This document shows positions 6,901 through 53,774 of a DNA stretch of 64,000 nt, piece after piece. The notes under the pieces are model-generated. The model was not told the origin of the DNA. It made no database searches and worked only from the letters and a program-made list of their open reading frames with translations. The position numbers and the translations under genes are program-made. How positions within the stretch are numbered: the first letter of the stretch is position 1; every line of letters begins with the position of its first letter. This DNA comes from Botryllus schlosseri (lineage: Eukaryota): positions 8,806,001-8,870,000 of the forward strand of contig CM119372.1 in the NCBI GenBank assembly GCA_051294905.1, read 5' to 3'.

Positions 6901-9900
6901 AGTCCTAGTAACAATAAATTAGCTTTCGCAGAGATACACGGAAACCCGATGTGTCTTATTTGTCTAAGAACAGTTGCCGCAACGAAACGAGGAAGTTTAA
7001 AACGACATCGCTGACAGTTTCATCCGGAGTTCAAAATACATACTACAGTACATACACCTCATCTTAAGACAAAACGTTGCTAGTCAAGTGCCAAATCCAG
7101 CAATCCATATTTCAAGGCATTGTTAAAATTGCCGACAATGTTTCAGAGGCATAGTTCAAAATTGCTTGGAATATTGCTAAAGCCAAGAAGTCAGCTTGAG
7201 AAATGGGATTTGAGAAAACTTTGGCAGACTGTGCGAATTCCCTGTTTCCGGAATTTAGCAACAATGACAACATTACCTGGTAAATCTTGAAGCTACAGTT
7301 GTCTGATTCAACCATGTCCAAATGAGTAACAATAATTTCAGTCAATCTTTCATCGCAGTTTCTGAAATAAGCTGCGGCGTAGGCTACTTTAGCCTTAGCA
7401 TCAGACAATTCCACCGGCTCATAATATGGGTGCATTTTCTTAGCGTGAACTTTGCACACAGTAAATGCTGGCAGATCAAACGTCTGGAGGGGACAGTTGT
7501 TCAGCAATGACGAGCTTTTATCGAGGATCACTCAAAAACATCAACTTATGACAAAGCTGACTTTTGTAATTATTGACGGGGCTCCAGCCATGGAAAAGGA
7601 GAAAAATCGCCGTGATCTGCTTACGCCACCGGAAAATAACAGATTCACACAAATAACTGCAAACTTCCGAACGCTGTCCATTAATGCTTTAGAGTGCATA
7701 AACGTGTATTCAACGCCCGTATACAACTGGTAATTACAGTGAATTTAATAGTAGTCTACGCTCACATAATAATAATTTTCTGCGGCCCGCAGCTCGTTTT
7801 CATGTTAAAAGGCGACCCGTTATACGTGGGAAGTTGAGAACCCCTGACTAAGAGGATTGTGATTGTGATGCCTATAATAATCTGACATGCATTTAGATTG
7901 GACCTTCACAAGAACAATCTCGGTGGCATTCCACCGGCAATAAAACAATTGGCGAATCTGGAATATTTGAATTTGGGAGGAAACAAGATCCAGCATTTTC
8001 AACATGCAGCATTGTTTTCCTTGAGAAAATTGAAGCGCCTCATACTGGGTCGCAATTTTCTTGTCTCGATTCCCAGTATGCTTCCTCCGTCACTGATAAA
8101 ACTCACAGTGAGTGGAAATCAATTGACCGAACTGGGAGACTTGAAGTATTTACGAAATCTCCGGATCTTACTCGCGGACAAAAATAATCTAACCGCGATT
8201 CCGCAACTCCCAAGCACCGTGAAGGTCGTCAGCTTATGTACTAACCAGATAGACGAAGACGTATCGTTGCTCTCTCTACCGAATTTAACCTCGATTAATT
8301 TGAGCAACAACAAGAGAATAGGAGATATCTCAATGATGACATTTTCGAACCAGAGTGGAAGGTTACCTCCTCGAAAGTTGCGAAAGTTTGTGGCAAGAAA
8401 TTCCGGGATAAGGAGTATCACTCCTAACGCTTTCAACTGCTTGTCTCGGTTACGTGTTCTCGATTTATCGTACAACGAGATAAGAAGTTACCGGGAATCT
8501 TGGTTTAGCGGTAACAAAGCAATGCGTAGCGTGCAGATCCGTGGAAATCCTTTTTCTTGTGGATGCGACGTCAATTCAAGCCTGGCGGAAATTGCGGATG
8601 TATTTCGGATGACGAATGAAGTGAAGAAGCGTGAATTTCATAACGATTTCAACCTAGTTACTTGTGAAACTTCAGGTAATTTTATATCCAAATATACGTT
8701 TTTGTTGGATGTCCAATCACATCATCGAATCGGCGAGTTCAACGAGAACCGCCTATATTAGATGATTAAATGCGTTACTATGATTTTGAATGTGATTAGC
8801 CGGCTCTTGCAATTAAACTGTAGGCGAGTAGGCCTCTGTATATTGTATATTGTAGATGTATGTACATTGTAGGCCTACATTGTACATGAGGATTCTTGTA
8901 CGTCGGGACTCGGGATCCATCCCTGTTTTGAGATGAATTTTGAACAAAGTATAATTAACTGATAGTTAGGTCAGCTGATCATTGTTGTTCATACGAGAAT
9001 ATGCATATTTTAGTCGTGGAAAGAGGGCTTTGTGAAACGTTCACACTGACGGCTGACTCATGCTCTATCAGAGGTAAGTCTTGTTTTCATTCAAAACCAG
9101 CCAATTCGTGGGAGTTCAACATATCTTTTTAGCTTACGAAAAAGACGAAATGGACAGAACAACGACAACCACAACAACGCTGAAACCAACAACTGCTAGT
9201 ACCACAACAGGAACTACATCTACTACTACTACTACTACGAAACATCGAAGACCTCTAAGCACAAACGCATTCGACTTCACCACTCGATCTGTATTTAACA
9301 TTGACCTAAAGACGGAGCTTTACACTGTAAGAATGCCGCAACCCCGCCCCGTGACGAGCAGCTTTAGAGGCACAATGACAAGGAACAGAATCGCTACAAC
9401 ACCTGATGTAATGACTAAGACCAGAACTACGACTATGGCTGCAGCGCGCGGCATCAAATCTACTACTACCACTACAACATCAACGGCCACCATGGGAGCT
9501 ATGACGTTGGCTGCAGCGCGAGACATCAAATCTACAACCACTACTGAGCCAACGACCACCAAGACTACGACGAGGACGACGACGACTACGGCTCCAGTAT
9601 CTACCACGACCACATCATCTACCACCACCACCACTACCACTATAGCAACAACAACAACAACAACATTGCCAGCAACAGAACCCCCGACAACTAAAAGTAC
9701 TACGACTTTGAGAGCGACACAACCCAAAACAACACAAAGCTCCACCACAGCTCGACCGACAACGAAACTGCCAACCACCACACATAGCTCCACCTTGCGT
9801 CAGTCAACGACCACTACTTCAAGCCCCACAACCACCTCAAGCACTCTGGTGATACCCTCCGTTGGGCCTGTTGGAGACTTGGAAGAAACAAGTAAGTTCA

Positions 9901-10502
9901 TGAAATGTACAATGGGACACCTACCTACATTTGTAATGGCCGATCACGTTGATTAATGACGACGGATTGTACTTATAGGTCACAATCCATCCAGAATGTT
10001 GGTTTGGGTAGGTCGGAACCCCTACCGTTTCAAACTTGTAATGATGCTCCATGTGGAAAGCGGATACGATTACGATAAAATAAAAATTCACAAGTTGCTT
10101 AAGAATCGAATCTACTTAATTTTGTTTTAGTTAGTTGCGTAATTTTAAAGGTGGTTATTTCCAGTTCTGATTGTACTTGCGACTTTTGAAAAGTGAGTAC
10201 TGAGTAGTTATAATTCTAGTTAAATTAGAGCTAAAACTTTGCAGAGTGTACAACTACAAACAGAATAATATTATATGCGCTTAAATTTTCAAGCTCTTGA
10301 TGTCATTCCACACACCTAACAAGGAACATTATTTTCAGGTGAATCTAAAAAATGGTGTTCGGATGACAGAGCTACGCCTTGTATATTCCCGTTTATTTAC
10401 AATTCGGAGAAAGTGTACGAGTGTGTCGGCTGGGGTAAATGGTGTTCTGAGACTGACAATTATGACAGGGATGGAGAGTGGGGTTACTGTCAGGAATGCT
10501 GA
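958..10502 (+). CDS. Secreted LRR protein with Thr-rich mucin stalk and C-terminal fibronectin type II domain (exons 958-1199, 4422-4553, 7897-8675, 9014-9073, 9133-9891, 10339-10502)
   Basis: All junctions GT-AG with matching phases (2,2,1,1,1). Signal peptide MWRILFSYFLLCNL; Cys-rich LRRNT (CAELGSECRC); LxxLxLxxN repeats; LRRCT GNPFSCGC; poly-Thr exon; last exon PCIFPFIYNSEKVYECVGWGKWCSETDNYDRDGEWGYC matches the FN2 pattern; AATAAA at 10554. An extra small exon near 9979 is possible. Confidence 0.85.
1267..2576. mobile_element. Non-autonomous hAT-type DNA transposon in LRR gene intron 1
   Basis: TIR cagagttggatcaa / ttgatccaactctg; TSD attaacgt/attgacgt (1 mismatch); subterminal tgtaat arrays at both ends. 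Confidence 0.9.
3810..4380. mobile_element. Degenerate MITE with GGATCC/ATCCG subterminal repeats
   Basis: Starts tagagaagtacggatc; clusters of atcc/ggat repeats at both ends; resembles the 14804 element. Ends eroded. Confidence 0.5.
4816..5909. repeat. ~47-bp inverted repeats bracketing ~1.1 kb (probable old DNA transposon)
   Basis: gaagatgacgtaatgtcatatgtatgtcatcgcaatagtaatacctg at 4817 versus its reverse complement ending at 5908, 2 mismatches; no TSD seen. Confidence 0.6.
5186..5390 (-). mobile_element. tRNA-derived SINE
   Basis: Minus strand: gcgagatagggtatagtggtgtaat (A box) ... gggttcgagtcc (B box) then ggtcgactca and an unrelated body; acceptor stem does not pair. 3' end approximate. 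Confidence 0.6.
6091..7846 (+). mobile_element. Degenerate hAT (Charlie/SPIN/GTF2IRD2-like) transposon with transposase remnants
   Basis: TIR caggggttctcaac / gttgagaacccctg; TSD acttagag/actaagag; remnants PMCLICLRTVAATKRGSLKRH (~6946, BED-like finger) and IIDGAPAM (~7570, catalytic DGAPAM motif); frames broken. Confidence 0.85.
6406..6907. mobile_element. hAT MITE nested in the 6091 element (same family as 59371-59890)
   Basis: TIR tagggctgggcaaaatc / gattgtgcccagtccta; TSD gtaataat/gtaacaat. Confidence 0.9.
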
Positions 10503-15181: not shown

Positions 15182-15272
15182 CCAGGTGTGTAAGCGCCAA
15201 GCATCACACATCCGTTCGTAGCGATATCGCTGTATTTGTTGAGGATATTTGTTTCTGGATCAATTGCTCATA

Positions 15273-15761
15273 ATGGTTAAAATTGGCCTGGAGTTCAAGG
15301 CTGTATTGGAAAATGTCAAGTCGTTACGTACTTGTGGTAAAGATTTCCGATGGTATTTGAAATTTCGGTGCGCAAATTGTGGAGAAGTCTCCCAGTCTTG
15401 GCAGTACGTGTCGGAGGAGATGAGTGCTGAGCTAAAAGGCGGCAGAGGACAAGCAAATATGGTGGAAAAATGCAAAATGTGCGCACGCGAGAATTCTGTC
15501 GCCATAATGGAAGGCAAAGTCAGTAATTATACTGCTGAAGATGATAGTTCAATGAGAGTAATTGTTGGGTTTGAATGCCGTGGACTTGAACCGGTCGAAT
15601 TCGACTTGCGCTCTGGATGGGAAGTTGAATCTAGCTGCTCCAACAAAATATTTTCAGACGTTGACTTGCAGGAAAAGGAATGGTATGATTATGATGACAT
15701 CGGCGGCGACTCAGTAAGCATAACCGAAATCAGTTACTCATTCATAAAGTTGAAAAATTGA
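15273..15761 (+). CDS. CZIB: CXXC motif-containing zinc-binding protein (C1orf123/DUF866), intronless CDS
   Basis: MVKIGLEFKAVLENV ... RWYLKFRCANCGE ... LKGGRGQANMVEKCKMCARENS ... FECRGLEPVEF ... EWYDYD matches the family; ATG at 15273. Confidence 0.93.
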   Translation: MVKIGLEFKAVLENVKSLRTCGKDFRWYLKFRCANCGEVSQSWQYVSEEMSAELKGGRGQANMVEKCKMCARENSVAIMEGKVSNYTAEDDSSMRVIVGFECRGLEPVEFDLRSGWEVESSCSNKIFSDVDLQEKEWYDYDDIGGDSVSITEISYSFIKLKN

Positions 15762-16343
15762 TATCTTGTTACTTATTGCTCTATTTTGTGCCCTATCCAT
15801 ATAATGAGTTTGTTTTCTGCTACCCTGAGAAAGTGTTTTACAATTTGGTTTCACCGTACAGCGTCCCAGGATATTAGTTGAAAATTGTCATTGATGGTGT
15901 GGCAAGATTATGTATACCAAATTGCATTCACACAACATATATTTTGATGCTGTTGAGAAGGTATCATAGCCCTTCTGATTCATCAAAACCACATCCAGTA
16001 CCCTACGGTACTATCTTTGTTTCGTATTAGAATATTTTATCTGTAGCCAATTATTGTGGGGTATTGCACTATTGCATGACCATTCAAAATACCGCAGTCA
16101 CTTGGACAGCAATACATAATGAAGAGAAATATAAGTTTGATGATTCTGTTCCTTATTTAATCAAAATTACTAGCTGATATTCAAAGTAGCATATATCAGT
16201 TCATATAAAGATTCAGGACCAGATTTGTGCAGAAATGTGTCTAATTTATCTGATATATATGTTGGTGCCTATATTTAAAATGTAGAGCTGTAGGCTACTT
16301 CGCCAATCAACACTGCATTATTTCTTTGCAGAAAACATAAACT

Positions 16344-17234
16344 ATGTCTAAGAAACGTATGCTATATGTTGGCGGTCTAGCTGAGGAGGTAAATGAAAAG
16401 ACAGTCCATGCTGCATTCATACCATTTGGAGACATAGTCGATATCAATATACCGCTGGATTTCAAGACTCAGCAACACCGCGGATTCGCATTCATCGAAT
16501 ATGAGATCGAGGAAGACGCAAGAGCGGCCATCGACAATATGAACGAAAGCGAATTATTCGGCAGAACAGTGAAAGTAAACATCGCCCGTCCCTTACATAT
16601 CAAGAGAGAAGGCCTTTCCTTTAGGCCGGTGTGGGCCGATGAAGAGTGGCTCAAGAAATATGCAGTTAAACCTGAAGGTGACTCTGAATCGATGGAGACA
16701 GATGACCAGACTGCTCAAGCTGTCGTCAAACAAAAGATTGAAAACCCACGAGTATATTTCGATATTAGATTCGGAAGCCAGTACGCTGGACGTATCGTTA
16801 TGGAGCTGCGAGCGGATATCACGCCAAAGACGGCGGAGAATTTCCGCTGCCTTTGCACCCACGAGAAAGGCTACGGATACAGAGGAAGCTCATTTCACCG
16901 TATCATTCCACAGTTCATGTGCCAAGGAGGTGACTTCACTAATCATAACGGCACTGGAGGAAAGTCAATCTATGGCAGAAAGTTTGACGATGAAAATTTT
17001 ACATTGAAACACACGGGAATGGGAGTACTGTCAATGGCAAATTCTGGTCCAAACACAAACGGCTCACAATTTTTCCTCTGCACTGAAAAGACCGACTGGC
17101 TTGATGGCAAACATGTTGTTTTCGGACACGTCACAGACGGTCTTGAAATTGTGAAGAAAATGGAAAATTTAGGATCGAAGGAAGGAAAACCAAAGCAAAA
17201 AGTAGTGATTGCTGATTGTGGCGAGCTGAAATGA
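16344..17234 (+). CDS. PPIE: Peptidyl-prolyl cis-trans isomerase E (cyclophilin-33), intronless CDS
   Basis: N-terminal RRM ([19 protein letters not shown]) plus cyclophilin domain ([41 protein letters not shown]); AATAAA at ~17495. Confidence 0.97.
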
Positions 17235-19867: not shown

Positions 19868-20223
19868 TTATTCTGAAGTTCTGTACCACAAATCACTTGT
19901 TTATATTTTATATGTATATAAAATTGGTATTCGAAGCTAGGTTCCGATGTAACAATAATGCAAGGTATCATATGTAATCCTTGGACAAAGGTGGTTGGAA
20001 ATGATGTATATATATTATATATATAGATACAATATATGATATATCATTGACGGAAGGGGACAAAGTTTACGTTGAAAAGTCGCATACGCTCCGGGCAACT
20101 CGGCTCCGGTATCTTGTTATTGAGCTGACGCGGGAATCCATTGTACATGATCCACTACTGCTAGTACTGCAACCGTTCTGGTTAGATATCTTTCAAGAAG
20201 CGTCAAACTGCATTAGGTACAGT

Positions 20224-21279
20224 ATGGAAGCGTTTTTTAAACCTACCGCTGCCACTATCGCAAAAAGAGCTGCTCAAGCTAAAGCTGCGCAGGAGGCTGA
20301 TGATCTTAAGCCATGGATAGAGAAGTACAGACCAAAATCTGTCCGCGAAATAGCTCATCAAGACGAGGTGGTAGCAGTTCTGAAAAAATGCATCACTGGT
20401 GCTGACGTCCCCAATATGTTGTTTTACGGACCACCAGGAACAGGAAAAACGTCTACCATTCTTGCATTGTCCCGGGACTTGTTTGGTCAGAAATTCAGAG
20501 ACCGTGTTTTGGAATTGAATGCCTCGGATGATAGAGGAATAGCGGTTGTAAGAGAAAAGATCAAAAACTTTGCACAACTGACAGTATCGAGCTTGAGCGG
20601 TGGAAAAGATCCCCATCCTTTCAAAATCGTGATTCTAGATGAGGCGGATTCGATGACCAAAGCAGCGCAACAGGCCTTGAGAAGAACAATGGAGAAGCAA
20701 ACAAAAAACACAAGATTTTGTCTGATCTGCAACTACGTAACCAGAATTATCCCTCCAATAACTTCCAGGTGTTCAAAGTTTAGATTTAAACCATTAGCAG
20801 AGGATGACCAGCGGAAACGATTGAATTTTGTAGCTGAAAAGGAATCAGTAAAAATATCGGAAACAGCACTTGATGCTTTAGTGAAATGTTCTGTTGGGGA
20901 CCTGAGAAGGGCTGTAACATTTCTGCAAACCGCCCATCGACTGAAAGGACAGGACGGTATTGCTGTCGATGATATATTAGAGATCACTGGAGTTATTCCG
21001 GAATCTGTGATTAAGGATTTTGTGAAGAGCTGCTACACAAACTCATTTGAAAAGCTCCGTGAAACTGTTGAAGATGTCAGTGCTGAAGGTTACCCTGCTT
21101 CGCAACTCATTTCGCAGCTCCATGATGAAGTTGTTGCCATGGATTCCTTATCGGATGATCAAAAATGTGAAATAACTGAGAAGCTGGCAGTTATGGACTG
21201 CTGTTTGAATGACGGAGCCGATGAATATCTTCAGTTAATGTCGCTGGGGACTTTAATTCAACAGCAGCTGTGTACTTGA
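20224..21279 (+). CDS. RFC4: Replication factor C subunit 4 (p37), intronless CDS
   Basis: PWIEKYRP, Walker [30 protein letters not shown] motif, DGADEYLQL; start MEAFFK at 20224 preferred over the track's TTG. Confidence 0.95.
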
Positions 21280-22512: not shown

Positions 22513-24534
22513 TTATGACGTGGTCCAGAAGCTTTTGCGGTTCTTGGCTTTTTGCAAAAGTTCAGTTGCCCGTGCTGATGTATGCGATGAAGCAACTGAC
22601 AGCGCATCGTTGTCTCGTTGCAACAAAATAGCTGCCGTCTGGGGCCTACCCGTAGGTCCGCAGTGCTGAAATTCATTATTCCTCAAAGAACCCCTTATCG
22701 GAGCTGTCTTGGCCAACGATCTCTTTTTCATAGTCGGGCTGAAGCCTGCGGATTGTGACCTTGATTTTGAGACTTCTACCTTCGGTGGTTCTTTGCTGCG
22801 GATGGATTTTTGTGGACATTTTGATTGTTTTGGTAGCAAAGGTTGTGGGCTTGAACGTACTAAGCGATGTGGCCGACCCTCCAGCAACGCATGATAGTCA
22901 CGAGTAGGTGACCCAGCAACTTGTGGTTTTTGGCGATCCCGATCCAGCAATGACATTTCACTGGTACTCCTTGTATCGCTCTTCTGTTTTGGTGACGTGA
23001 GAATAGCGCCGCCTACGCAGGGCGTTGTAAGATCATGATGTGTACGTAATGCTCCACCTATTTCATGTAATCGAGGTGTGGAGACTCGTCCTTCTAACAC
23101 GGAAGCAGACTGTGAATTTTGTGACTGCTCCTCGATTTCATCAGGATTTGCTTCCTCAGTCCACGCGTGCTTACGGTCCACTGAGTATTTTGACACTTCC
23201 GACTGCTCGTCCAAGCTATCAGCTTCAACCAGAGTTTCTACTTCTGCAGCCTCCGTTATGTCTTCCACACTATCGCTTCCTTTTTGAGACATTCTGCTCC
23301 ACTTTTCTTCGGAGTCGACCTCTTTAACACTTTGTCTCTCTCGTTCATCTTTCGCGTCCTGATTATCGCCGCTGCCCGTCTCAGATCTTACAGTGCCGTC
23401 GTCGGTAGATACCTCCCACAATTTGTTAAATGGAGAAATGACTTGAGTCGCATGGTCTGGATCTATGTGCGTTCCTTCGTGCTTTTGTTTGTTGTCTTCT
23501 GCCATTTTACGAAGTTCGCCTACGTCGAATTCGCGTGTCGGTTCGTATTGAGATTTGTATTCCGATCTGAAACCCTTTTTATTGTTGTTGTGGGTGAGGT
23601 ACGGCCTTTGCATATCTTTGACTCTCAATTTCATGGACGGTGATCCCGGTGAAGTCGCAGTCTGCGGCCTTCTCTTGTCGTTTCTCGGTGATCCATATTT
23701 TGAAATGTATTCCGACGATTTATTGAATTGCATGCCACTGTGGGGCGGTATAGCAGGTGAAGAGGAGTGCACGACGTCAAGTGCCGATAAGACTGGCGAT
23801 GGTTTCACGGAGAACTTTGGAGCAGCGAAATTCCGTTGATATTCTGACAGGCGGGCTTTAGATTTCCGGGCGATGCCGTTGGGGTTCATGCCAGCCTTGC
23901 GCTCAAGAGGTATGTTTCGTTCATGCCTGACAATTGTTTTCGGGTGTGTCACGTCTTGGTCCATATTGCCGGAAGTGTTTGCTCTATTGGTGGAAATATT
24001 CTTTTCAACACCTTTCTTTTTACCTCTGCTTGTTGAATTCCGCTTGCCGGTACCTTCTTTTTGTGGACTTTTTATGTTAGATGTTGGCCCTTGCTTTACT
24101 GGTGATGTGAGAGAGTTGTTTCTATGAGACAGTGTTCCTTTCTTCAGCGATTTAGGTGGACTTTTCTGTATTCGTTTCTTCAGAGCTTTACTATTCTCTG
24201 AATCACGTTTGACAGTCCGCGATTTAGCTGTCTTATTGATGGTAGAAGCGGCATTGGGGATGTTGCTTTGATCGATTTCAGCATCATCCATGACAGGTGT
24301 ACCACGATCACTTTCAGGCCACCAGTTTAGGCAATGTTGTACTTCCGGTTCTCTATGCCAGACCTTCTTTTTAGTGGTAATTCTTGGTCCGTTCACAAAT
24401 CCGACTTGATCAGATCGCAGACCAGCATCAATAGCATTTTGCTCCAAATTGGGTGAGAATGTGGCTGACCTGTAAGACTGATTCCATCTGTAATTACGGT
24501 CGTACTCACTGCTACCCCGGAATATCACGGGCAT
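22513..24534 (-). CDS. MDM1: Nuclear protein MDM1 homolog (centriolar microtubule-binding protein), intronless CDS
   Basis: N-terminus MPVIFRGSSEYDRNYRW ... AGLRSDQ; repeated SEY...F/Y motifs; GRVSTPRL..IGGALRTHHDLTTPCVGGAIL; C-terminal A.NRKSFW. Confidence 0.88.
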   Translation of the reverse strand: MPVIFRGSSEYDRNYRWNQSYRSATFSPNLEQNAIDAGLRSDQVGFVNGPRITTKKKVWHREPEVQHCLNWWPESDRGTPVMDDAEIDQSNIPNAASTINKTAKSRTVKRDSENSKALKKRIQKSPPKSLKKGTLSHRNNSLTSPVKQGPTSNIKSPQKEGTGKRNSTSRGKKKGVEKNISTNRANTSGNMDQDVTHPKTIVRHERNIPLERKAGMNPNGIARKSKARLSEYQRNFAAPKFSVKPSPVLSALDVVHSSSPAIPPHSGMQFNKSSEYISKYGSPRNDKRRPQTATSPGSPSMKLRVKDMQRPYLTHNNNKKGFRSEYKSQYEPTREFDVGELRKMAEDNKQKHEGTHIDPDHATQVISPFNKLWEVSTDDGTVRSETGSGDNQDAKDERERQSVKEVDSEEKWSRMSQKGSDSVEDITEAAEVETLVEADSLDEQSEVSKYSVDRKHAWTEEANPDEIEEQSQNSQSASVLEGRVSTPRLHEIGGALRTHHDLTTPCVGGAILTSPKQKSDTRSTSEMSLLDRDRQKPQVAGSPTRDYHALLEGRPHRLVRSSPQPLLPKQSKCPQKSIRSKEPPKVEVSKSRSQSAGFSPTMKKRSLAKTAPIRGSLRNNEFQHCGPTGRPQTAAILLQRDNDALSVASSHTSARATELLQKAKNRKSFWTTS

Positions 24535-25305
24535 ATTGGAAAACGACTCACAGTACTGTAACTTCTACGTAAATAGACTTCCAAAAGAACGCAACCGTTC
24601 ACAGCAAAGCTGATCATTCGTAACCAATGACGCTAACGGCGGTCACGGTTGGAATAATCTGGAAAAACTACAAACATGTAGCAATGGTTTCCTCATATAC
24701 TTGATGAAATGACTAATATGAACAAACTTATGCTAAGTAGTTATTTCAGATGCGAAATATGACACCATCGAATGTCAAGTTCGGTGCTGATAGGCATTTA
24801 CCAACTCGGCAGGTTACATACAGTTCATATTACAAAACAGTCTGGTGACCGCATTTCATTATCTTACATCGGTGTTTCGAATCCAAGCACTATATACTAG
24901 TAAATCCGTCATCAACAAAACACATTGTGCAGACAGCGCATGGCAGAGGCATTGACACGTTTGCGTCAGCCAGGCCAGTTGTTAGCAAACCTGATGACGT
25001 GACCAGACCACTGAGCAATTATTTTAAACACCAGACCAGACCTACACAGATAGCATGTAATCAATCGCAGCAAGCAATATATTCATTTTTGTATTATCCT
25101 GATGTATATGCATGATGAATATTTCATATATTATTTCCAACAAGTAGTCCGTGCTTACACTGTATATTTAAATGCTTCTCGTGCTGAACTTTTCACTCCT
25201 TGCCAGAAGCTGGAGTGGAGAAGAACCTGTCGGAGTGTCGGTACATACTCCAGGTTGCTGTTGTAAGAGCATTTTTTACTATCGGTAACACGACATATCT
25301 TCACG

Positions 25306-48425: not shown

Positions 48426-51400
48426 CTACAAAATTGTGAGGTAACGGTGGTATACAATACCAATAGCACTAGCACAAAACCAGATAGTGCAAACCCACCA
48501 AATAAAAAAGGAAAATATACTATTCAATATAGCTGGAGAAAACACAGCAGTAACTCTTGCAAATGAAACATGGGCATTGAACGCCATGTCAAGATAAGAT
48601 GAATCATCTGTGATAATATTTAATGTACGGTGTTCAAAAACAGTCGCGGTATCGTTTCTATGGTAGTCTGTCCAGACTTGTGACCAAGAATGCCCTCCCA
48701 TACTTTTCATACAAAGTGTGAGCGAAATGACGCCTAAAATTGGGCCGGCGTACTGCAAAGCAACAATGCACAAGTATAGAAAAACACGGGAAACAGTTTG
48801 TTGCACTTCGACATTTGTTGTGTTTCCTGCCTCCTTACGCAACCGACGTAGCTTTACGTAACTCAAATTGAGGTACGCTTGAAGGTGATATCGAATGGCA
48901 GTCAGTTTCAAAACACATAGGGCGACAATAGAAATAATTCTGTTAATGTCATACTGATGATCAGTCAAAATAGGCTTCCGGCCTACGCTGTTATAGGCCG
49001 GAATTGAGCATAGAACATCACGCGAAATGGGCCTAATCCACATGAGGGATATAACAAATGGAGTACCAAAACTGATGTGCAACAGAAGAGTGACAAGTTT
49101 ATCCTTTTTCGCATATTTCAATCCGTCAACGTACATTTGAGCTGTTCGTATCCCGGGAAATGCTAAAAGCGTTGCCATAAGGCCGGCAAGTAATGAGATG
49201 AGGACTTTCAGAACTGGTAGTGAAATCAAGTTGGGACCCTCTGAACTGAAGGAAAGAAGGGTAGAATTTTCCGCAAATTTCTGGTAAGCAGAATGGAAGC
49301 CAAACTCCAGAATATCCCCGTCAAGTAGAAGACTCAACATTGCAGCGACAAAAGAGAAACATCCAAATGTTATGCAAGTTGCTAATTCCCCCGATTCCGT
49401 CTTGAAATACAGTTTCATGATTCCGTAGAGTGCTCTGTAGGTAATCATAAATTAGTGACTACCTACATTTACAAAAATATATAATCACTTACTTGCATAC
49501 GGACAACAGAACTATGCAAATCCATATCATTGAGAGGTTCAGCTCTTGTTGGGGCTTCCAAAATTCCAAGTAAGTTTCCGTGCCAATGTATACAAGCGAT
49601 GCGGATAGGCCGTAGTTTATCAACCACTCAAATTCATCGTATTTCCTGCAAAATTATGAGACTAGAAGAAACCTGGCTAGCCAGATGAGTTATCCAAATG
49701 CATGCAGAAGTGGTTGTACATTCAAAACATAGAACTGAGGCAATAAAAAAAACTTATAAGTTATAAATAAATATCTCACTGAACATTGTATGATTAGTCA
49801 AATTTGGTCTTCTTGTATCATACTGTCCAAATTATATCGGGGGAGCTGGCGTAGTTGATTAATCCAATGCCATCGGTACGATAGACTGCGGGTTGAGTCT
49901 CAGCTGTACACGTTATGATAATCTGAGCTTCTCCACCCCTGTGTCGCTGTTGCTACGGCATCTTACCAAAAGAAATGCAAAAAAAGGTCCGATAAAGGGC
50001 AAATACAAGAGAATGACAAAAGCAGAGAAGCGTCAAAAGAAATTAAGATCAAGATCGCACGCGGTTACAGTGGGCGCTAAAACTAGTAAACCCAGGTCAA
50101 GGTGGTTGTTGGATTGATAGACCAGATCTGGTCATTTTTACGTGTTCTTATCAGTTCATCACATCACATTGTCTTTTCAATTTTTTGTATTTCATTGCAC
50201 ATTGCATGTCTTGAGCGATGTAAATATAGAACTGCTAATTATGATCTTATATTTGAGACTTTTTAAATAATGCTTACGAGTTACGAATGCTCGGAGCGTG
50301 AAGCTTAATACAAGCCAGGAAGCCACATAGTTCCTTACATAATAAGGAAGTTGACAAATAAATATTACTTCCGGGAATTATAACATGATTAACAAAATAA
50401 ATGAGTAATTCTAACGAATGAGCAATATCTCAAGGAAAAAAGAGACTATAGTAAAATATACAGAGTAATTTGAAGTCTAATATAGGGCTTCAGTAATATA
50501 ACACAGGAAGTTGTCATGCTGACCCAAGATGCTGACCCTATGACACGTGAAGATATAATCAGTCGTTCTTAGGTCAGAGGAAATGAACAACTTGTGACGA
50601 AACCTATTATCCTTTGAAAGCAAGTTGAAACAACACAATGAAAAATGATAAGCTTCATATTTTATTGCAATAACATAAAGTACCCACAATCGTAAAGAGC
50701 GCTGGTTGTGTGCACTGTGACGGAAGGACTTTTTAGGCTACAAATAAAACCTTAAGTGGAGAAAATGAATGGAAAATACGGAAGATACAGAAAGAGCAAA
50801 TCTACCCGTGTTAGAAATTCGAACAGGACGAAAGAGGAAAATATCAGTTACAACTTACACAATGATAGAAGGACTGGAGTTGACAGAAGAAAGATGGGAT
50901 TCCGTGGTAAAAGGAAAATACTAAGGTTGGAATCGATGAAAAATGTATTTGCTAACTTGGCTTTAACTGATAACCCGTCAGTTTATGGGAGATCGGAAGC
51001 AAATTCAAAAAGCAATAGGAGCGAGATAAACAGCATGGACAAACGATTTGCAGCTAGAAGAATCACAAGGAGCTCCTCTCTGGGTGTCGAATCATTTATA
51101 AAACCATGCTGCGCGCAGTTGGAAGAACATACAAGCTGGCGCGGGGCAACCAGCTGCAATGTAAGAAACCATACATACAGTTACAACTGGAAACCAACAG
51201 GATCAGGGGAGATATCTCTTGCATACAGTGCAGAACAGGGAATGCATTACTGGGAAGGAACATCAACAAATCCTTCGAAGAAATGTTATATATTTGGACA
51301 TCAGAGTCAAATTTCTGGAGAGTGGCAATATGTAACTAATGTCAATGGGAATGTATATTATAAAAAAATGATGACAACACCAGATTTAATCGACTTGAAG

Positions 51401-52709
51401 AAAGATATTTCTGATCCCAGAGTATTTTATCTGGAGAATGACCGACTTCAATCTGCTGTGCAGACACATTTATATCTTTCCAAGAAACCAAGTGCTGATA
51501 ATACTAGAATGATTCTGGCCTTGAAAGACGTACGACAGTCATTGAATTGGACAATTGGATAATTGGAATGATATCTGCAATTATTTCAATGTCCAATGCT
51601 GAGAAGAATTTGCATTGTGCATGTAACATAAGACTTTGTACGTTGGAAGCAAGATGCTCCATTTTGTTGCTTATGCATAAAGATAAATTACAATGTCGAT
51701 TGACAAAGATCTGCAGATCATTGTTCAAAGTCTCTCTGACTCATGATTTTTACAAAATGTGAATAGAATAAAATTAAATACATAAGAGCAGTGGTTCATG
51801 GGGATGATATGACGAAATTCATTCAATACCCTGAAAGTATTTTTGAGCTTCACAGGATTTTTCAAGCAAGTTCACACTGGATTTTCATAAGAGTTACTGT
51901 CGCCATTCGGGAGAACAATTTCAAAAGAAAACCTTGACTTTATTTTTCAATATATTTTTTAAATAGTTAGTGTATGCAGTTATTAAAAAGAACGGTATGT
52001 GTTATTTAAATATGCTGCCAACGTTTCATAAGGCTCTCCAAGTCTTCATACACATGGTCTAATTTAGTAAGCTTTCCACTACTCCTGGATCTGAGGCTAT
52101 TCAGTGCTGAGCTGAGATTATTACAAGTGACAGACAAGCAACAAAGCTGCAAAAACCATTGCAATTGTAACTCACTCCAATGTAACTGCATCCAGAGTAG
52201 TAATATTTTCTGTGCCCAACACCATATCTGCATTCTTCGGAATCTTGAAAGTTTCATTGCGAGTTTCTGGCAACTTTGCAGAGAGTTTTTCCGTCACTTT
52301 TCGCCTATAAGAAAATGAATCGCACGGTAATAATTTAAATCGTGGATAGGACATATGCCAGACTGGAATTGGTGGCAAACGTCACGCGCAACTTTCCATT
52401 TAATTCCTTAATTATTCTATGGAAGAAACCCTTCTATCACACGCAACTTATTGCCGAAAACAACCACTAATTCCAGTCTGGGACTTATGTAATTTACTTT
52501 TTTGCAGCATTCTTCTCTTTTTTGTGTCCCCGTTTTTCATTGGAATCCTTGCCTATCAGTTTTTTCAAATACTCATTACTCGGATGAAGAAACCGGTACA
52601 GAGACCCATTGCATAATATCCATCGTCCCAGGGAGTAAATGGGAAAGATTTTTTGCATAAATGTAGCCGCAATCAAGGTGAAGCATAGTTGAAAACCAAA
52701 TATCGCCAT
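48426..52709 (-). CDS. TMEM161: Transmembrane protein 161; exons 52709-52498, 52304-52176, 49645-49493, 49434-48426
   Basis: MAIFGFQLCFTLIAATFMQK..SLGRWILCNGSLYRFLHPS; ETFKIPK; EFEWLINY; LAFPGIRTAQM; HLQAYLN; RVFLYLCIVALQY; all introns phase 2, GT-AG. Confidence 0.93.
50765..51562 (+). CDS. Intronless 265-aa ORF nested antisense in TMEM161 intron 2; basic N-terminus, putative IL-1-like beta-trefoil C-terminus
   Basis: 798-nt ORF in AT-rich DNA, upstream acceptor-like ttttag at 50731-50736, AATAAA at 51767, no TE motifs. Fold assignment is an inference from motif order. Confidence 0.7.
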   Translation: MNGKYGRYRKSKSTRVRNSNRTKEENISYNLHNDRRTGVDRRKMGFRGKRKILRLESMKNVFANLALTDNPSVYGRSEANSKSNRSEINSMDKRFAARRITRSSSLGVESFIKPCCAQLEEHTSWRGATSCNVRNHTYSYNWKPTGSGEISLAYSAEQGMHYWEGTSTNPSKKCYIFGHQSQISGEWQYVTNVNGNVYYKKMMTTPDLIDLKKDISDPRVFYLENDRLQSAVQTHLYLSKKPSADNTRMILALKDVRQSLNWTIG

Positions 52710-53774
52710 GCTACTATACCAGTGCCACTTAACAGTGTATGTTTATGGGTATTTTCGATCTAAAAGCAATTTCATAAAAATTTAAGTGCATGTAGTATAA
52801 TGTGATCTGCATTTACAAATATTTGGTTATATCATTGAAATCATATTAGTTGATCTGATTGCCATTGATAAGTTTGTGTAGTACTGCTCGAGTGCTCGAC
52901 TTGATACCATCTTACTATAACAGTTTGACAGCATCGCTATAGTCGCTACGCATGCAGTATATCTACTAAATACTAATTATATTACAATACGACTGGAATA
53001 GCAGATTTTGTGAAAATGCATATCATTTTTTTCTTTATGAACGGATAAAAACATGTCGATCTTGAACCTTTAATCTTGAAGGTGAGTCTGAGCTCTCTAT
53101 CGTTAGGAAGGTCAATATGTAGACTAGTAAATCAATCACGTGTTGACACGATACTCCCAAGACCCCAGCTGCGCTCGCATCCAATATCCAAAAATTGAAT
53201 GAAGTAGTATAGGGTTTTTCTACGCTGTTTGCGAAGTAAGCGTCTCATCTATCACCATGGTATCGATGGTTTCTGATTATCCAGGTTGATGCAGCTCCCT
53301 GGTTTCAAATGAGGTTTCCTAGAAAATTAGGTCAATTGAACCTCGCTTGGAAAATATGTTACGATGCAGAAATAAACTTGTGCAACCGATTAAGTCGCAA
53401 TTTTTACATCGCCTATGCCAGGTGGGTGTCTGATCTCGAAGACTACTCCGAGTCGTTTCGACACCTTCCATCTTTCATTGTCAATCAATCAATCAGGTTT
53501 ATTAATATTTTCACCGTTTCAAACATCACAAGACTGCAATACAATGAAAAGATAGGAAGGTGTCGAAACAACTTGGAGTAGCCTTACCATATTTTGGAAA
53601 TCTAAAAAGAGGACACTTTTTCAGAAATTTGAGACTTGCAACACCGGAGAAGAGTTCTCAAAAACCGGTGAATCTTTCCCACTGGATGACTAAAAAAAAA
53701 GGTCATCTTTCAGCCCAGAGCTACAATCAACCGTTTTTCACTCCGAAATACCCGCCGGAGCGTCACTTCTGTGC

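Follow-up and report, generated by a model that had tools for sequence, protein, structure and literature searches.

An intronless ascidian gene nested in TMEM161 encodes a leaderless protein with a predicted beta-trefoil domain that resembles pro-IL-1-type cytokines

The 64-kb window of the Botryllus schlosseri genome analysed here (contig CM119372.1, positions 8,806,001 to 8,870,000; coordinates below are those of the window unless another contig is named) contains an open reading frame (ORF) of 265 codons plus a TAA stop at 50765-51562 on the plus strand, whose product we refer to as P0001. This ORF is very probably a genuine protein-coding gene of one exon, lying antisense within TMEM161 intron 2 and belonging to a new and conserved gene family that is restricted to tunicates. 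Residues 122-265 of the protein are modelled with high confidence as a beta-trefoil, a fold that they almost certainly adopt, and they follow a basic, leaderless N-terminal region. The P0001 family looks like a pro-IL-1-type protein, and its membership of the IL-1 superfamily is not established. We put the chances at about even that tunicates have in it their equivalent of an IL-1-superfamily cytokine or alarmin (IL-18, IL-1alpha or IL-33 type), made as a leaderless pro-form.

The reading frame runs from ATG to TAA in a single exon and is intact exactly as claimed in a first-pass annotation made from the sequence alone. The stop-to-stop frame around it spans 268 codons, in a window that is 59% A+T and in which stop codons are frequent. 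Frames of this length are expected by chance about 3.3e-4 times in the 64-kb window, and 1000 shuffles of the 2,530-bp host intron gave longest frames of 93.5 codons on average (standard deviation 19.4, none above 198), with none of the 1000 reaching 268. The placement of the ORF within TMEM161 intron 2, on the strand opposite to the host gene, was borne out by two kinds of evidence. Pfam PF10268 matches the minus strand on both sides of the ORF, at 52497-52742 (profile positions 1-68, E 4.6e-23) and at 48429-49451 (profile positions 148-485, E 1.8e-97), and spliced cDNA contigs from the two sequencing runs described below, X6 and X7, join 49644 to 52175 across the host intron (49645-52174, minus strand), which separates coding exons 2 and 3.

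As the annotation had foreseen, the C-terminal part of P0001 is predicted to be a 12-strand beta-trefoil (residues 122-265; 51128-51559, plus strand). AlphaFold2 supplied with an alignment of 11 family sequences gave blocks of predicted local distance difference test score (pLDDT) of 70-92 over residues 121-265, with strands 1 to 6 at residues 123-135, 141-145, 149-153, 160-167, 173-180 and 187-193 and strands 7 to 12 at 196-201, 221-224, 227-230, 236-241, 248-253 and 262-264. AlphaFold2 run on the single sequence of P0001 yielded a mean pLDDT of 34 and no usable model. The seven P0001 segments that the annotation had aligned by eye with IL-1beta all fall on predicted strands, in the order b1, b4-b5, b6, b8, b9-b10, b11 and b12. 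Protein-language-model neighbours of two family members were also trefoils without exception (clitocypin, ricin-B-like, CCL2-like, I66, fascin and FGF/fascin), which lends independent support to the fold, not to IL-1 in particular.

A Foldseek search of PDB with this model returned 48 matches at E<=1e-3, and among the 42 matches listed at that threshold 40 were IL-18, IL-1beta, IL-1alpha or chicken IL-1beta, counting as IL-18 PDB 4hjj_A, whose entry title names no chain. IL-18 ranked first (E 3e-6, template modelling score 0.65-0.77 on target length), followed by IL-1beta and IL-1alpha, and the two exceptions from outside the IL-1 family were 6lci, at rank 28, and, at rank 48, the lectin SeviL. 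The solved structures nearest to the model are thus not FGFs or lectins but IL-18, IL-1beta and IL-1alpha, as had been anticipated. The main rival to an IL-1 relationship accepts both gene and fold and holds that P0001 is a beta-trefoil of other descent, either a lineage-specific intracellular lectin or inhibitor of the clitocypin, CCL2 or cospin types or another binding module, whose closeness to IL-18 reflects convergence within a very common fold. We consider this rival somewhat doubtful. IL-18 came out on top in both Foldseek and VIA-align, aligning over the most residues (136, versus 122 or fewer) and with the lowest root-mean-square deviation (rmsd), and only two of the 42 listed Foldseek matches lay outside the IL-1 family. 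Chains of the IL-1 family aligned over 125-136 residues, versus 111-124 for other trefoils, among them the ricin-type and fungal proteins HA33, CBM42, clitocypin, CCL2 and cospin, which have no long basic pro-region; in this respect P0001 is more like pro-cytokines than fungal lectins. None of the 11 family members matched a Pfam lectin or inhibitor family, including PF00652 and PF14200 for R-type lectins, and the Q-x-W repeats of such lectins are missing, without a single Q-x-W triplet in the domain of P0001. A second kind of trefoil, an FGF resembling the intracellular FHFs (FGF11-14), would also be leaderless, with an N-terminal nuclear signal and an action inside the cell. We think this very unlikely: no FGF appeared among the best 50 Foldseek matches in PDB, FGF chains were not the nearest structures, and none of the 11 members matched PF00167 (Pfam, E<=10).

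Other structural results, together with the sequence, architecture, synteny and receptor searches that follow, weigh against an IL-1 relationship. A representative-library structure search left IL-1alpha tied with a botulinum haemagglutinin component. Language-model features singled out trefoil lectins and inhibitors from fungi and bacteria and not IL-1, in a library that is largely microbial and unlikely to hold IL-1 clusters. The structural model covers a single family member and is built on 11 sequences, and on this model the margin of the IL-1 family over other trefoils is modest. No member of the family matched any Pfam profile at E<=10, and the PF00340 match that would have tied it to IL-1 by sequence did not materialize for any of the 11. 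Full-length and domain-only family profiles run against 177,635 PDB sequences recovered no IL-1, their matches being those of chance only (thioredoxin reductase, EtpA repeats and a nanobody). PF00340 likewise found nothing in the six-frame translated genome, a result of little weight since control genomes gave none either. In the accessible text of a structure-guided survey (Fontenla-Iglesias et al., Nat Ecol Evol 2026; PMC13736523), the invertebrate proteins termed IL-1anc were also missed by BLAST and HMMER.

The same text describes an (F/L)ES motif in strand 9 of IL-1 trefoils as 'often' or 'partially' conserved (PMC13736523). Predicted strand 9 of P0001 is R227-L228-Q229-S230, and its invariant L228, together with S230, sits at the place where IL-1 trefoils carry (F/L)ES (L228-Q229-S230, 51446-51454, plus strand, from the model and the family alignment). 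The motif is only partly present in the family: L is found in 11/11 members, the middle E in none of the 11, and the third position is S in just two, P in eight and Q in one, the S230-type residue being confined to the pair formed by P0001 and a relative, P0002. In strand 1, nine of the 11 members have [aliphatic]-x-[D/N] after the invariant C131, which may be similar to an A-x-D feature of IL-1 family strand 1.

Protein architecture and gene structure also differ from what has been described for IL-1 proteins. A PDZ domain was found in none of the 11 members (Pfam, E<=10), whose N-terminal half is predicted to be disordered; a small subset of the IL-1anc proteins is reported to be without one as well, in the portion of the survey available (PMC13736523). 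According to that portion, the coding sequence of IL-1 trefoils is divided among three to five exons with two conserved intron phases (PMC13736523). None of the four copies of the family in the B. schlosseri genome has an intron, and the conserved IL-1 intron phases are missing with them. Four neighbours of the gene in the window are single long ORFs too, namely a CXXC zinc-binding protein (15243-15758, plus strand), a protein with an RNA recognition motif (RRM) and a cyclophilin domain (16341-17231, plus strand), an RFC-like protein (20005-21276, plus strand, 424 aa) and an MDM1-like protein (22516-24564, minus strand, 683 aa). Since these neighbours are intron-poor, missing introns are not odd at this place and secondary intron loss is plausible.

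Neither conserved linkage nor a candidate receptor came to light. IL-1 loci of several phyla, though not of all clades, are described in the accessible text as linked to GCC2, ESD, EIF2A, TRAF3 or IL-1R (PMC13736523). We saw none of these among the 88 ORFs of at least 95 aa in the 64-kb window, nor among the 114 ORFs of at least 90 aa in the 100 kb around a cluster of three paralogs on another contig (C12), scans that miss short exons. A search of the genome with PF01582 found four TIR exons, three of them in tandem among leucine-rich repeat (LRR) exons and of Toll-like-receptor type, and the fourth with no Ig or LRR ORF of at least 55 aa within about 13 kb upstream. Genes for Ig-TIR receptors, which the annotation had suggested looking for, were not found in this search, in which only the best candidates were scored and short exons are missed; the three tandem genes are LRR-TIR. 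These three Toll-like-receptor-type genes (L017-L019) lie at C13:3.075-3.10 Mb, and two of their three TIR matches contain in-frame stops. The proposed IL-1-type identity has in this way held in part: the trefoil, the nearness to IL-18 and IL-1, the leaderless start and the basic pro-region resembling a nuclear localization signal (NLS) stand, the sequence link and the intron phases do not, and the strand-9 motif is partial. No outcome that the annotation had listed as refuting its proposal was encountered.

The N-terminal pro-region (residues 1-113; 50765-51103, plus strand) is 25.6% K+R with a net charge of +19, and most of residues 1-110 have a pLDDT under 50 (segments 2-4, 14-40, 43-53 and 65-109), in agreement with the earlier description of the first ~120 aa as R/K-rich and probably disordered. 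The absence of a signal peptide was also upheld, by a simple hydropathy scan rather than a dedicated signal-peptide predictor. Over the first 70 residues, Kyte-Doolittle means in 12-residue windows peak at 0.64 for P0001 and at 0.22-1.04 across the nine family proteins scanned, no 19-residue window reaches 1.4, and a hydrophobic leader is seen in none of these nine, a set from which the translations of the three C12 paralogs were left out. Residues 35-51 (50867-50917, plus strand) form a cluster like a bipartite NLS, with RR, 10 residues and a 5-residue window holding four K/R. The classical bipartite rule, [KR]2-x10-12-(>=3 of 5 K/R), holds at the aligned place in five of the 11 members. The other six comprise two truncated proteins, one with a deletion at this place, one with an RRRR run, and P0004 and the Ciona intestinalis protein, which possess the region but depart from the rule. 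Immediately downstream, at residues 53-63 (50921-50953, plus strand), the family alignments show conservation of a helix with the motif R-[LIM]-[DEH]-S-[MIL]-[KQR]-[NK]-[LIV]-[FL], followed by an acidic [ED][DE]xS patch; the model places a short helix at residues 54-63, mostly above pLDDT 50. Candidate sites for cleavage of the pro-region in P0001 are Asp69 and Asp92, along with the semi-conserved [ED][DE]xS patch after the helix.

Relatives of P0001 were found both in its own genome and in other ascidians, so that the search for paralogs and orthologs suggested by the annotation was productive. In the 495-Mb B. schlosseri genome, P0001 identified three further open copies, all within 16 kb on contig C12 and encoding 233, 261 and 304 aa. 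A reciprocal search with one of these paralogs returned the same four places and no others, and all four copies are single uninterrupted ORFs, with frames of 233-304 aa. HMMER run against 1.84 billion representative proteins gave six relatives (E 9.5e-47 to 8.4e-4), among which Styela clava LOC144425170 and Ciona savignyi H2YZ47 and H2YZ46 are named entries, all annotated as 'uncharacterized'. A word-index search with P0007 added C. intestinalis LOC100187150 (P0009), an 'uncharacterized protein'; the same kind of search found nothing with P0001 and only P0004 with a 10-sequence alignment. As far as these searches reach, the family is confined to ascidian tunicates. A quick tree put P0001 next to P0002, with which it is 45% identical (SH-aLRT 97), and joined the three clustered paralogs to P0003 and P0006 (SH-aLRT 98); its deepest branch consists of the Ciona proteins.

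The alignment of 11 sequences has twelve invariant positions (P114, C131, W163, F177, G178, Y189, P206, D217, R219, F221, L228 and W262), and between subfamilies synonymous sites are saturated while protein identity is still 42-49%; together these argue for constraint on the protein. The ratio of nonsynonymous to synonymous substitution rates is 0.72 over 228 codons between the two youngest paralogs, L002 and L003. Both the NLS-like basic cluster and the helix motif, which the other paralogs retain, are missing from L002 (L002:1297-1998), which may be a relaxed or decaying copy. A 273-aa ORF beside the C12 cluster (L026:6020-6838) was considered as a further member and set aside, with an hhalign probability of 0.3%.

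The distribution of the family also bears on whether the gene derives from a virus or a transposable element, which we regard as exceedingly improbable. It is intronless and sits in the intron of another gene, and two of the C12 paralogs have a Harbinger-type transposase between them, features that a mobile origin would explain. Neighbouring housekeeping genes are likewise single long ORFs, however, so intronlessness is not unusual here. The protein carries no transposon or viral Pfam domain, and a search of viral structures in BFVD gave three matches at E<=1e-3, all weak, generic trefoils with an rmsd of 17-25 A. With just four copies in the genome and orthologues in Ciona and Styela, which represent two ascidian orders, and without such domains, a mobile-element origin is unlikely, and the best matches are neither viral nor transposable-element proteins. 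The transposase ORF (L006:35-1156, plus strand, 374 aa) matches DDE_Tnp_4 at E 1.2e-31 and lies in the stretch between the two paralogs (C12:5930035-5933332), which also contains a Myb/SANT-like ORF (L006:2940-3332, minus strand).

Transcription of the locus was assessed with contigs from two public runs of one study (X6 and X7). These contigs carry no strand information, and they derive from cDNA because they include spliced TMEM161 joints. Two X6 contigs, 50362-51150 and 51152-52204, cover the ORF with 0 differences at depths of 3.2 and 7.1, similar to the depth of 3-13 over TMEM161 exons in the same run, and X7 contigs cover the ORF in pieces, starting at 50279. Coverage in the two runs extends over 50279-52204, and the stretch 49670-50170 of the host intron is uncovered in both. 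With the signal limited to part of the intron, the contigs fit a separate transcription unit; being strand-less, they would also fit TMEM161 read-through that ends in the intron.

No splice joint was seen within or just 5' of the ORF, across which the contigs are colinear. The two flanking signals reported by the annotation are both in place. An AATAAA lies at 51767-51772 (plus strand), 205 nt 3' of the stop codon, and an acceptor-like CTTTTTAG at 50729-50736 (plus strand), 28 nt 5' of the ATG, is a putative site of spliced-leader trans-splicing. Among the joints and loose ends listed from the contigs, none falls at 50735-50736, the AG of this site. The cDNA-covered stretch 50279-50764 contains ten upstream ATGs that open short reading frames of 4-18 codons, a burden on any colinear leader. 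Spliced-leader trans-splicing is common in tunicates, and trans-splicing at the acceptor-like AG would remove the upstream-ATG problem, which makes the site a lead.

These data bear on a further alternative, that there is no working gene at this locus, P0001 being a decaying or silent copy and its RNA unspliced TMEM161 or read-through ending in the intron. The orientation of the RNA is not given by the contigs, the X6 contig 51152-52204 continues into TMEM161 exon 2, and a TTTATT (AATAAA on the minus strand) is present at 50661. In X14, a bulk RNA-seq run of which 6% was sampled, TMEM161 exons were covered with 0 reads on the ORF; in X18 (13% of the run sampled) there were also 0 reads on the ORF and hardly any on TMEM161 either. 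The ten upstream ATGs and the missing joint at the acceptor-like site point the same way, and all of this tells against a functional gene as well. On the other side, the 265-codon frame is intact versus a chance expectation of 3.3e-4, the 45%-identical P0002 has an intact frame with the same motifs, and P0001 retains all 12 family-invariant residues. Coverage of the intron moreover has a depth like that of exons and stays within 50279-52204, short of the whole intron. We therefore judge a non-working locus to be improbable.

Compared with known systems, the P0001 family shares the layout of several IL-1-type precursors and differs from each. Human IL-18 (PDB 3wo2_B and 4xfs_A) has 13-15% identity with P0001 in structural alignment and no sequence-profile match. 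The IL-18 propeptide is short; the pro-region of P0001, at ~113-121 residues, is much longer, and its gene is intronless. The pro-forms of IL-1alpha and IL-33 are alike in kind to P0001 in the layout of the pro-region, with no sequence similarity, and P0001 may share their nuclear placement; we know of no counterpart in IL-1alpha or IL-33 of the conserved R-[LI]-D-S-M-K-N-[LI]-F helix. Comparison with the IL-1anc proteins is by description only, from the accessible text of the survey (PMC13736523). Both groups are invertebrate and leaderless, have a C-terminal IL-1-like trefoil with a strand-9 motif, are invisible to sequence searches and are recognised by predicted structure, and a minority of IL-1anc proteins are PDZ-less (PMC13736523). 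Most IL-1anc proteins, however, bear a PDZ domain and have their coding sequence divided among three to five exons with conserved phases, whereas the P0001 family has no PDZ domain and no introns, its motif in strand 9 reads L-x-[S/P] and lacks the E, and no reported synteny partner was seen (PMC13736523).

Taken as homology, a true relationship of the P0001 family to the IL-1 superfamily is in our estimation close to an even bet, perhaps a shade below. A function as cytokine or alarmin is plausible, and we hold it with less conviction. In such a role, the protein would be made as a leaderless pro-form that its basic N-terminal part may hold in the nucleus or cytosol. Damage, or proteolysis that strips off the pro-region, could let the protein out of the cell by a route other than the secretory pathway, and the freed trefoil would then act as a ligand of a cell-surface receptor. 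The ascidian family might on these terms be the missing tunicate branch of IL-1, consisting of fast-evolving, PDZ-less and intron-less pro-cytokines with a nuclear-type pro-domain that are released as alarmins or inflammatory signals; we put this forward tentatively. Vertebrates and tunicates are sister groups. The survey of Fontenla-Iglesias et al. traced IL-1 cytokines to cnidarians and, in the text accessible, reports no IL-1 candidates in C. intestinalis, B. schlosseri or S. clava (PMC13736523). Besides the source species, the P0001 family is present in two of those surveyed, C. intestinalis and S. clava, where its members are annotated only as 'uncharacterized protein'. In the literature searched we found no mention of LOC144425170, H2YZ47, H2YZ46 or LOC100187150, and nothing relevant on a tunicate IL-1-like trefoil beyond the IL-1anc paper and its preprint.

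If P0001 is a true IL-1 relative, the tunicate gap left by the 2026 survey would be closed, and the closest invertebrate relatives of vertebrates would be seen to keep an IL-18/IL-1-like ligand that this dedicated survey missed. A basic NLS-type pro-domain would then have taken the place of the PDZ-trefoil architecture, either earlier than or in parallel with the style of vertebrate IL-1alpha and IL-33. A 2022 review states, in its accessible part, that tunicate IL-1-like activities had been described and that no invertebrate IL-1-like molecule had by then been characterized molecularly (PMC9020223). These activities come from the same animal group as the P0001 family, and nothing connects the gene to them. 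Beck, Raftos and others reportedly described such 'IL-1-like' activities in the 1980s-90s, in Styela among other tunicates, and they are said never to have been tied to a gene. As part of the missing-branch interpretation, the S. clava member and its relatives could lie behind these never-cloned activities, and a true IL-1 relative would offer a concrete gene for testing the old reports, in Ciona with transgenesis available. The named Ciona and Styela genes allow a direct test for an IL-1-type ligand in the closest relatives of vertebrates. If P0001 is not kin to IL-1, its family is still a new, conserved and leaderless beta-trefoil family with a distinctive pro-region.

The host gene was resolved in the same contigs. 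TMEM161 exon 1 has its coding part at 52497-52742 (minus strand), corresponding to PF10268 positions 1-68, and is joined to exon 2 (52175-52303, minus strand) by a 52303>52497 joint seen, like that across intron 2, in both X6 and X7. Exons 3 and 4 occupy 48429-49644 (minus strand; exon 3 at 49493-49644, exon 4 up to 49434), matching PF10268 positions 148-485, and are connected by a 49434>49493 joint in X7. All three joints are CT..AC, that is, GT..AG on the minus strand. The 58-nt intron between exons 3 and 4 (49435-49492) is spliced in an X7 contig and kept in the X6 contig 49200-49452, a difference that reflects either alternative splicing or intron retention.

By long-ORF scan, the genes of the window encode LRR, CXXC zinc-binding, RRM-cyclophilin, RFC-like, MDM1-like, CHD1-like, TMEM161 and FMN-reductase-like proteins, and the neighbours of the C12 cluster are a KIDINS220-like and an RPE65-like gene. 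A 292-aa open frame without a Pfam match (9078-9953, plus strand) adjoins the LRR-encoding ORF (7886-8758, plus strand). Rfam gave no match at E<=1 over 49600-52800, an interval that takes in a 124-bp element in TMEM161 intron 1 (52358-52481) resembling a miniature inverted-repeat transposable element, whose 13-bp terminal inverted repeats (at 52358-52370 and at 52469-52481) are perfect. The bin holding this element has a summed contig depth of 197 in X6 and 619 in X7, with loose ends exactly at both borders of the element; the high depth and the loose ends suggest that many copies of it are transcribed elsewhere.

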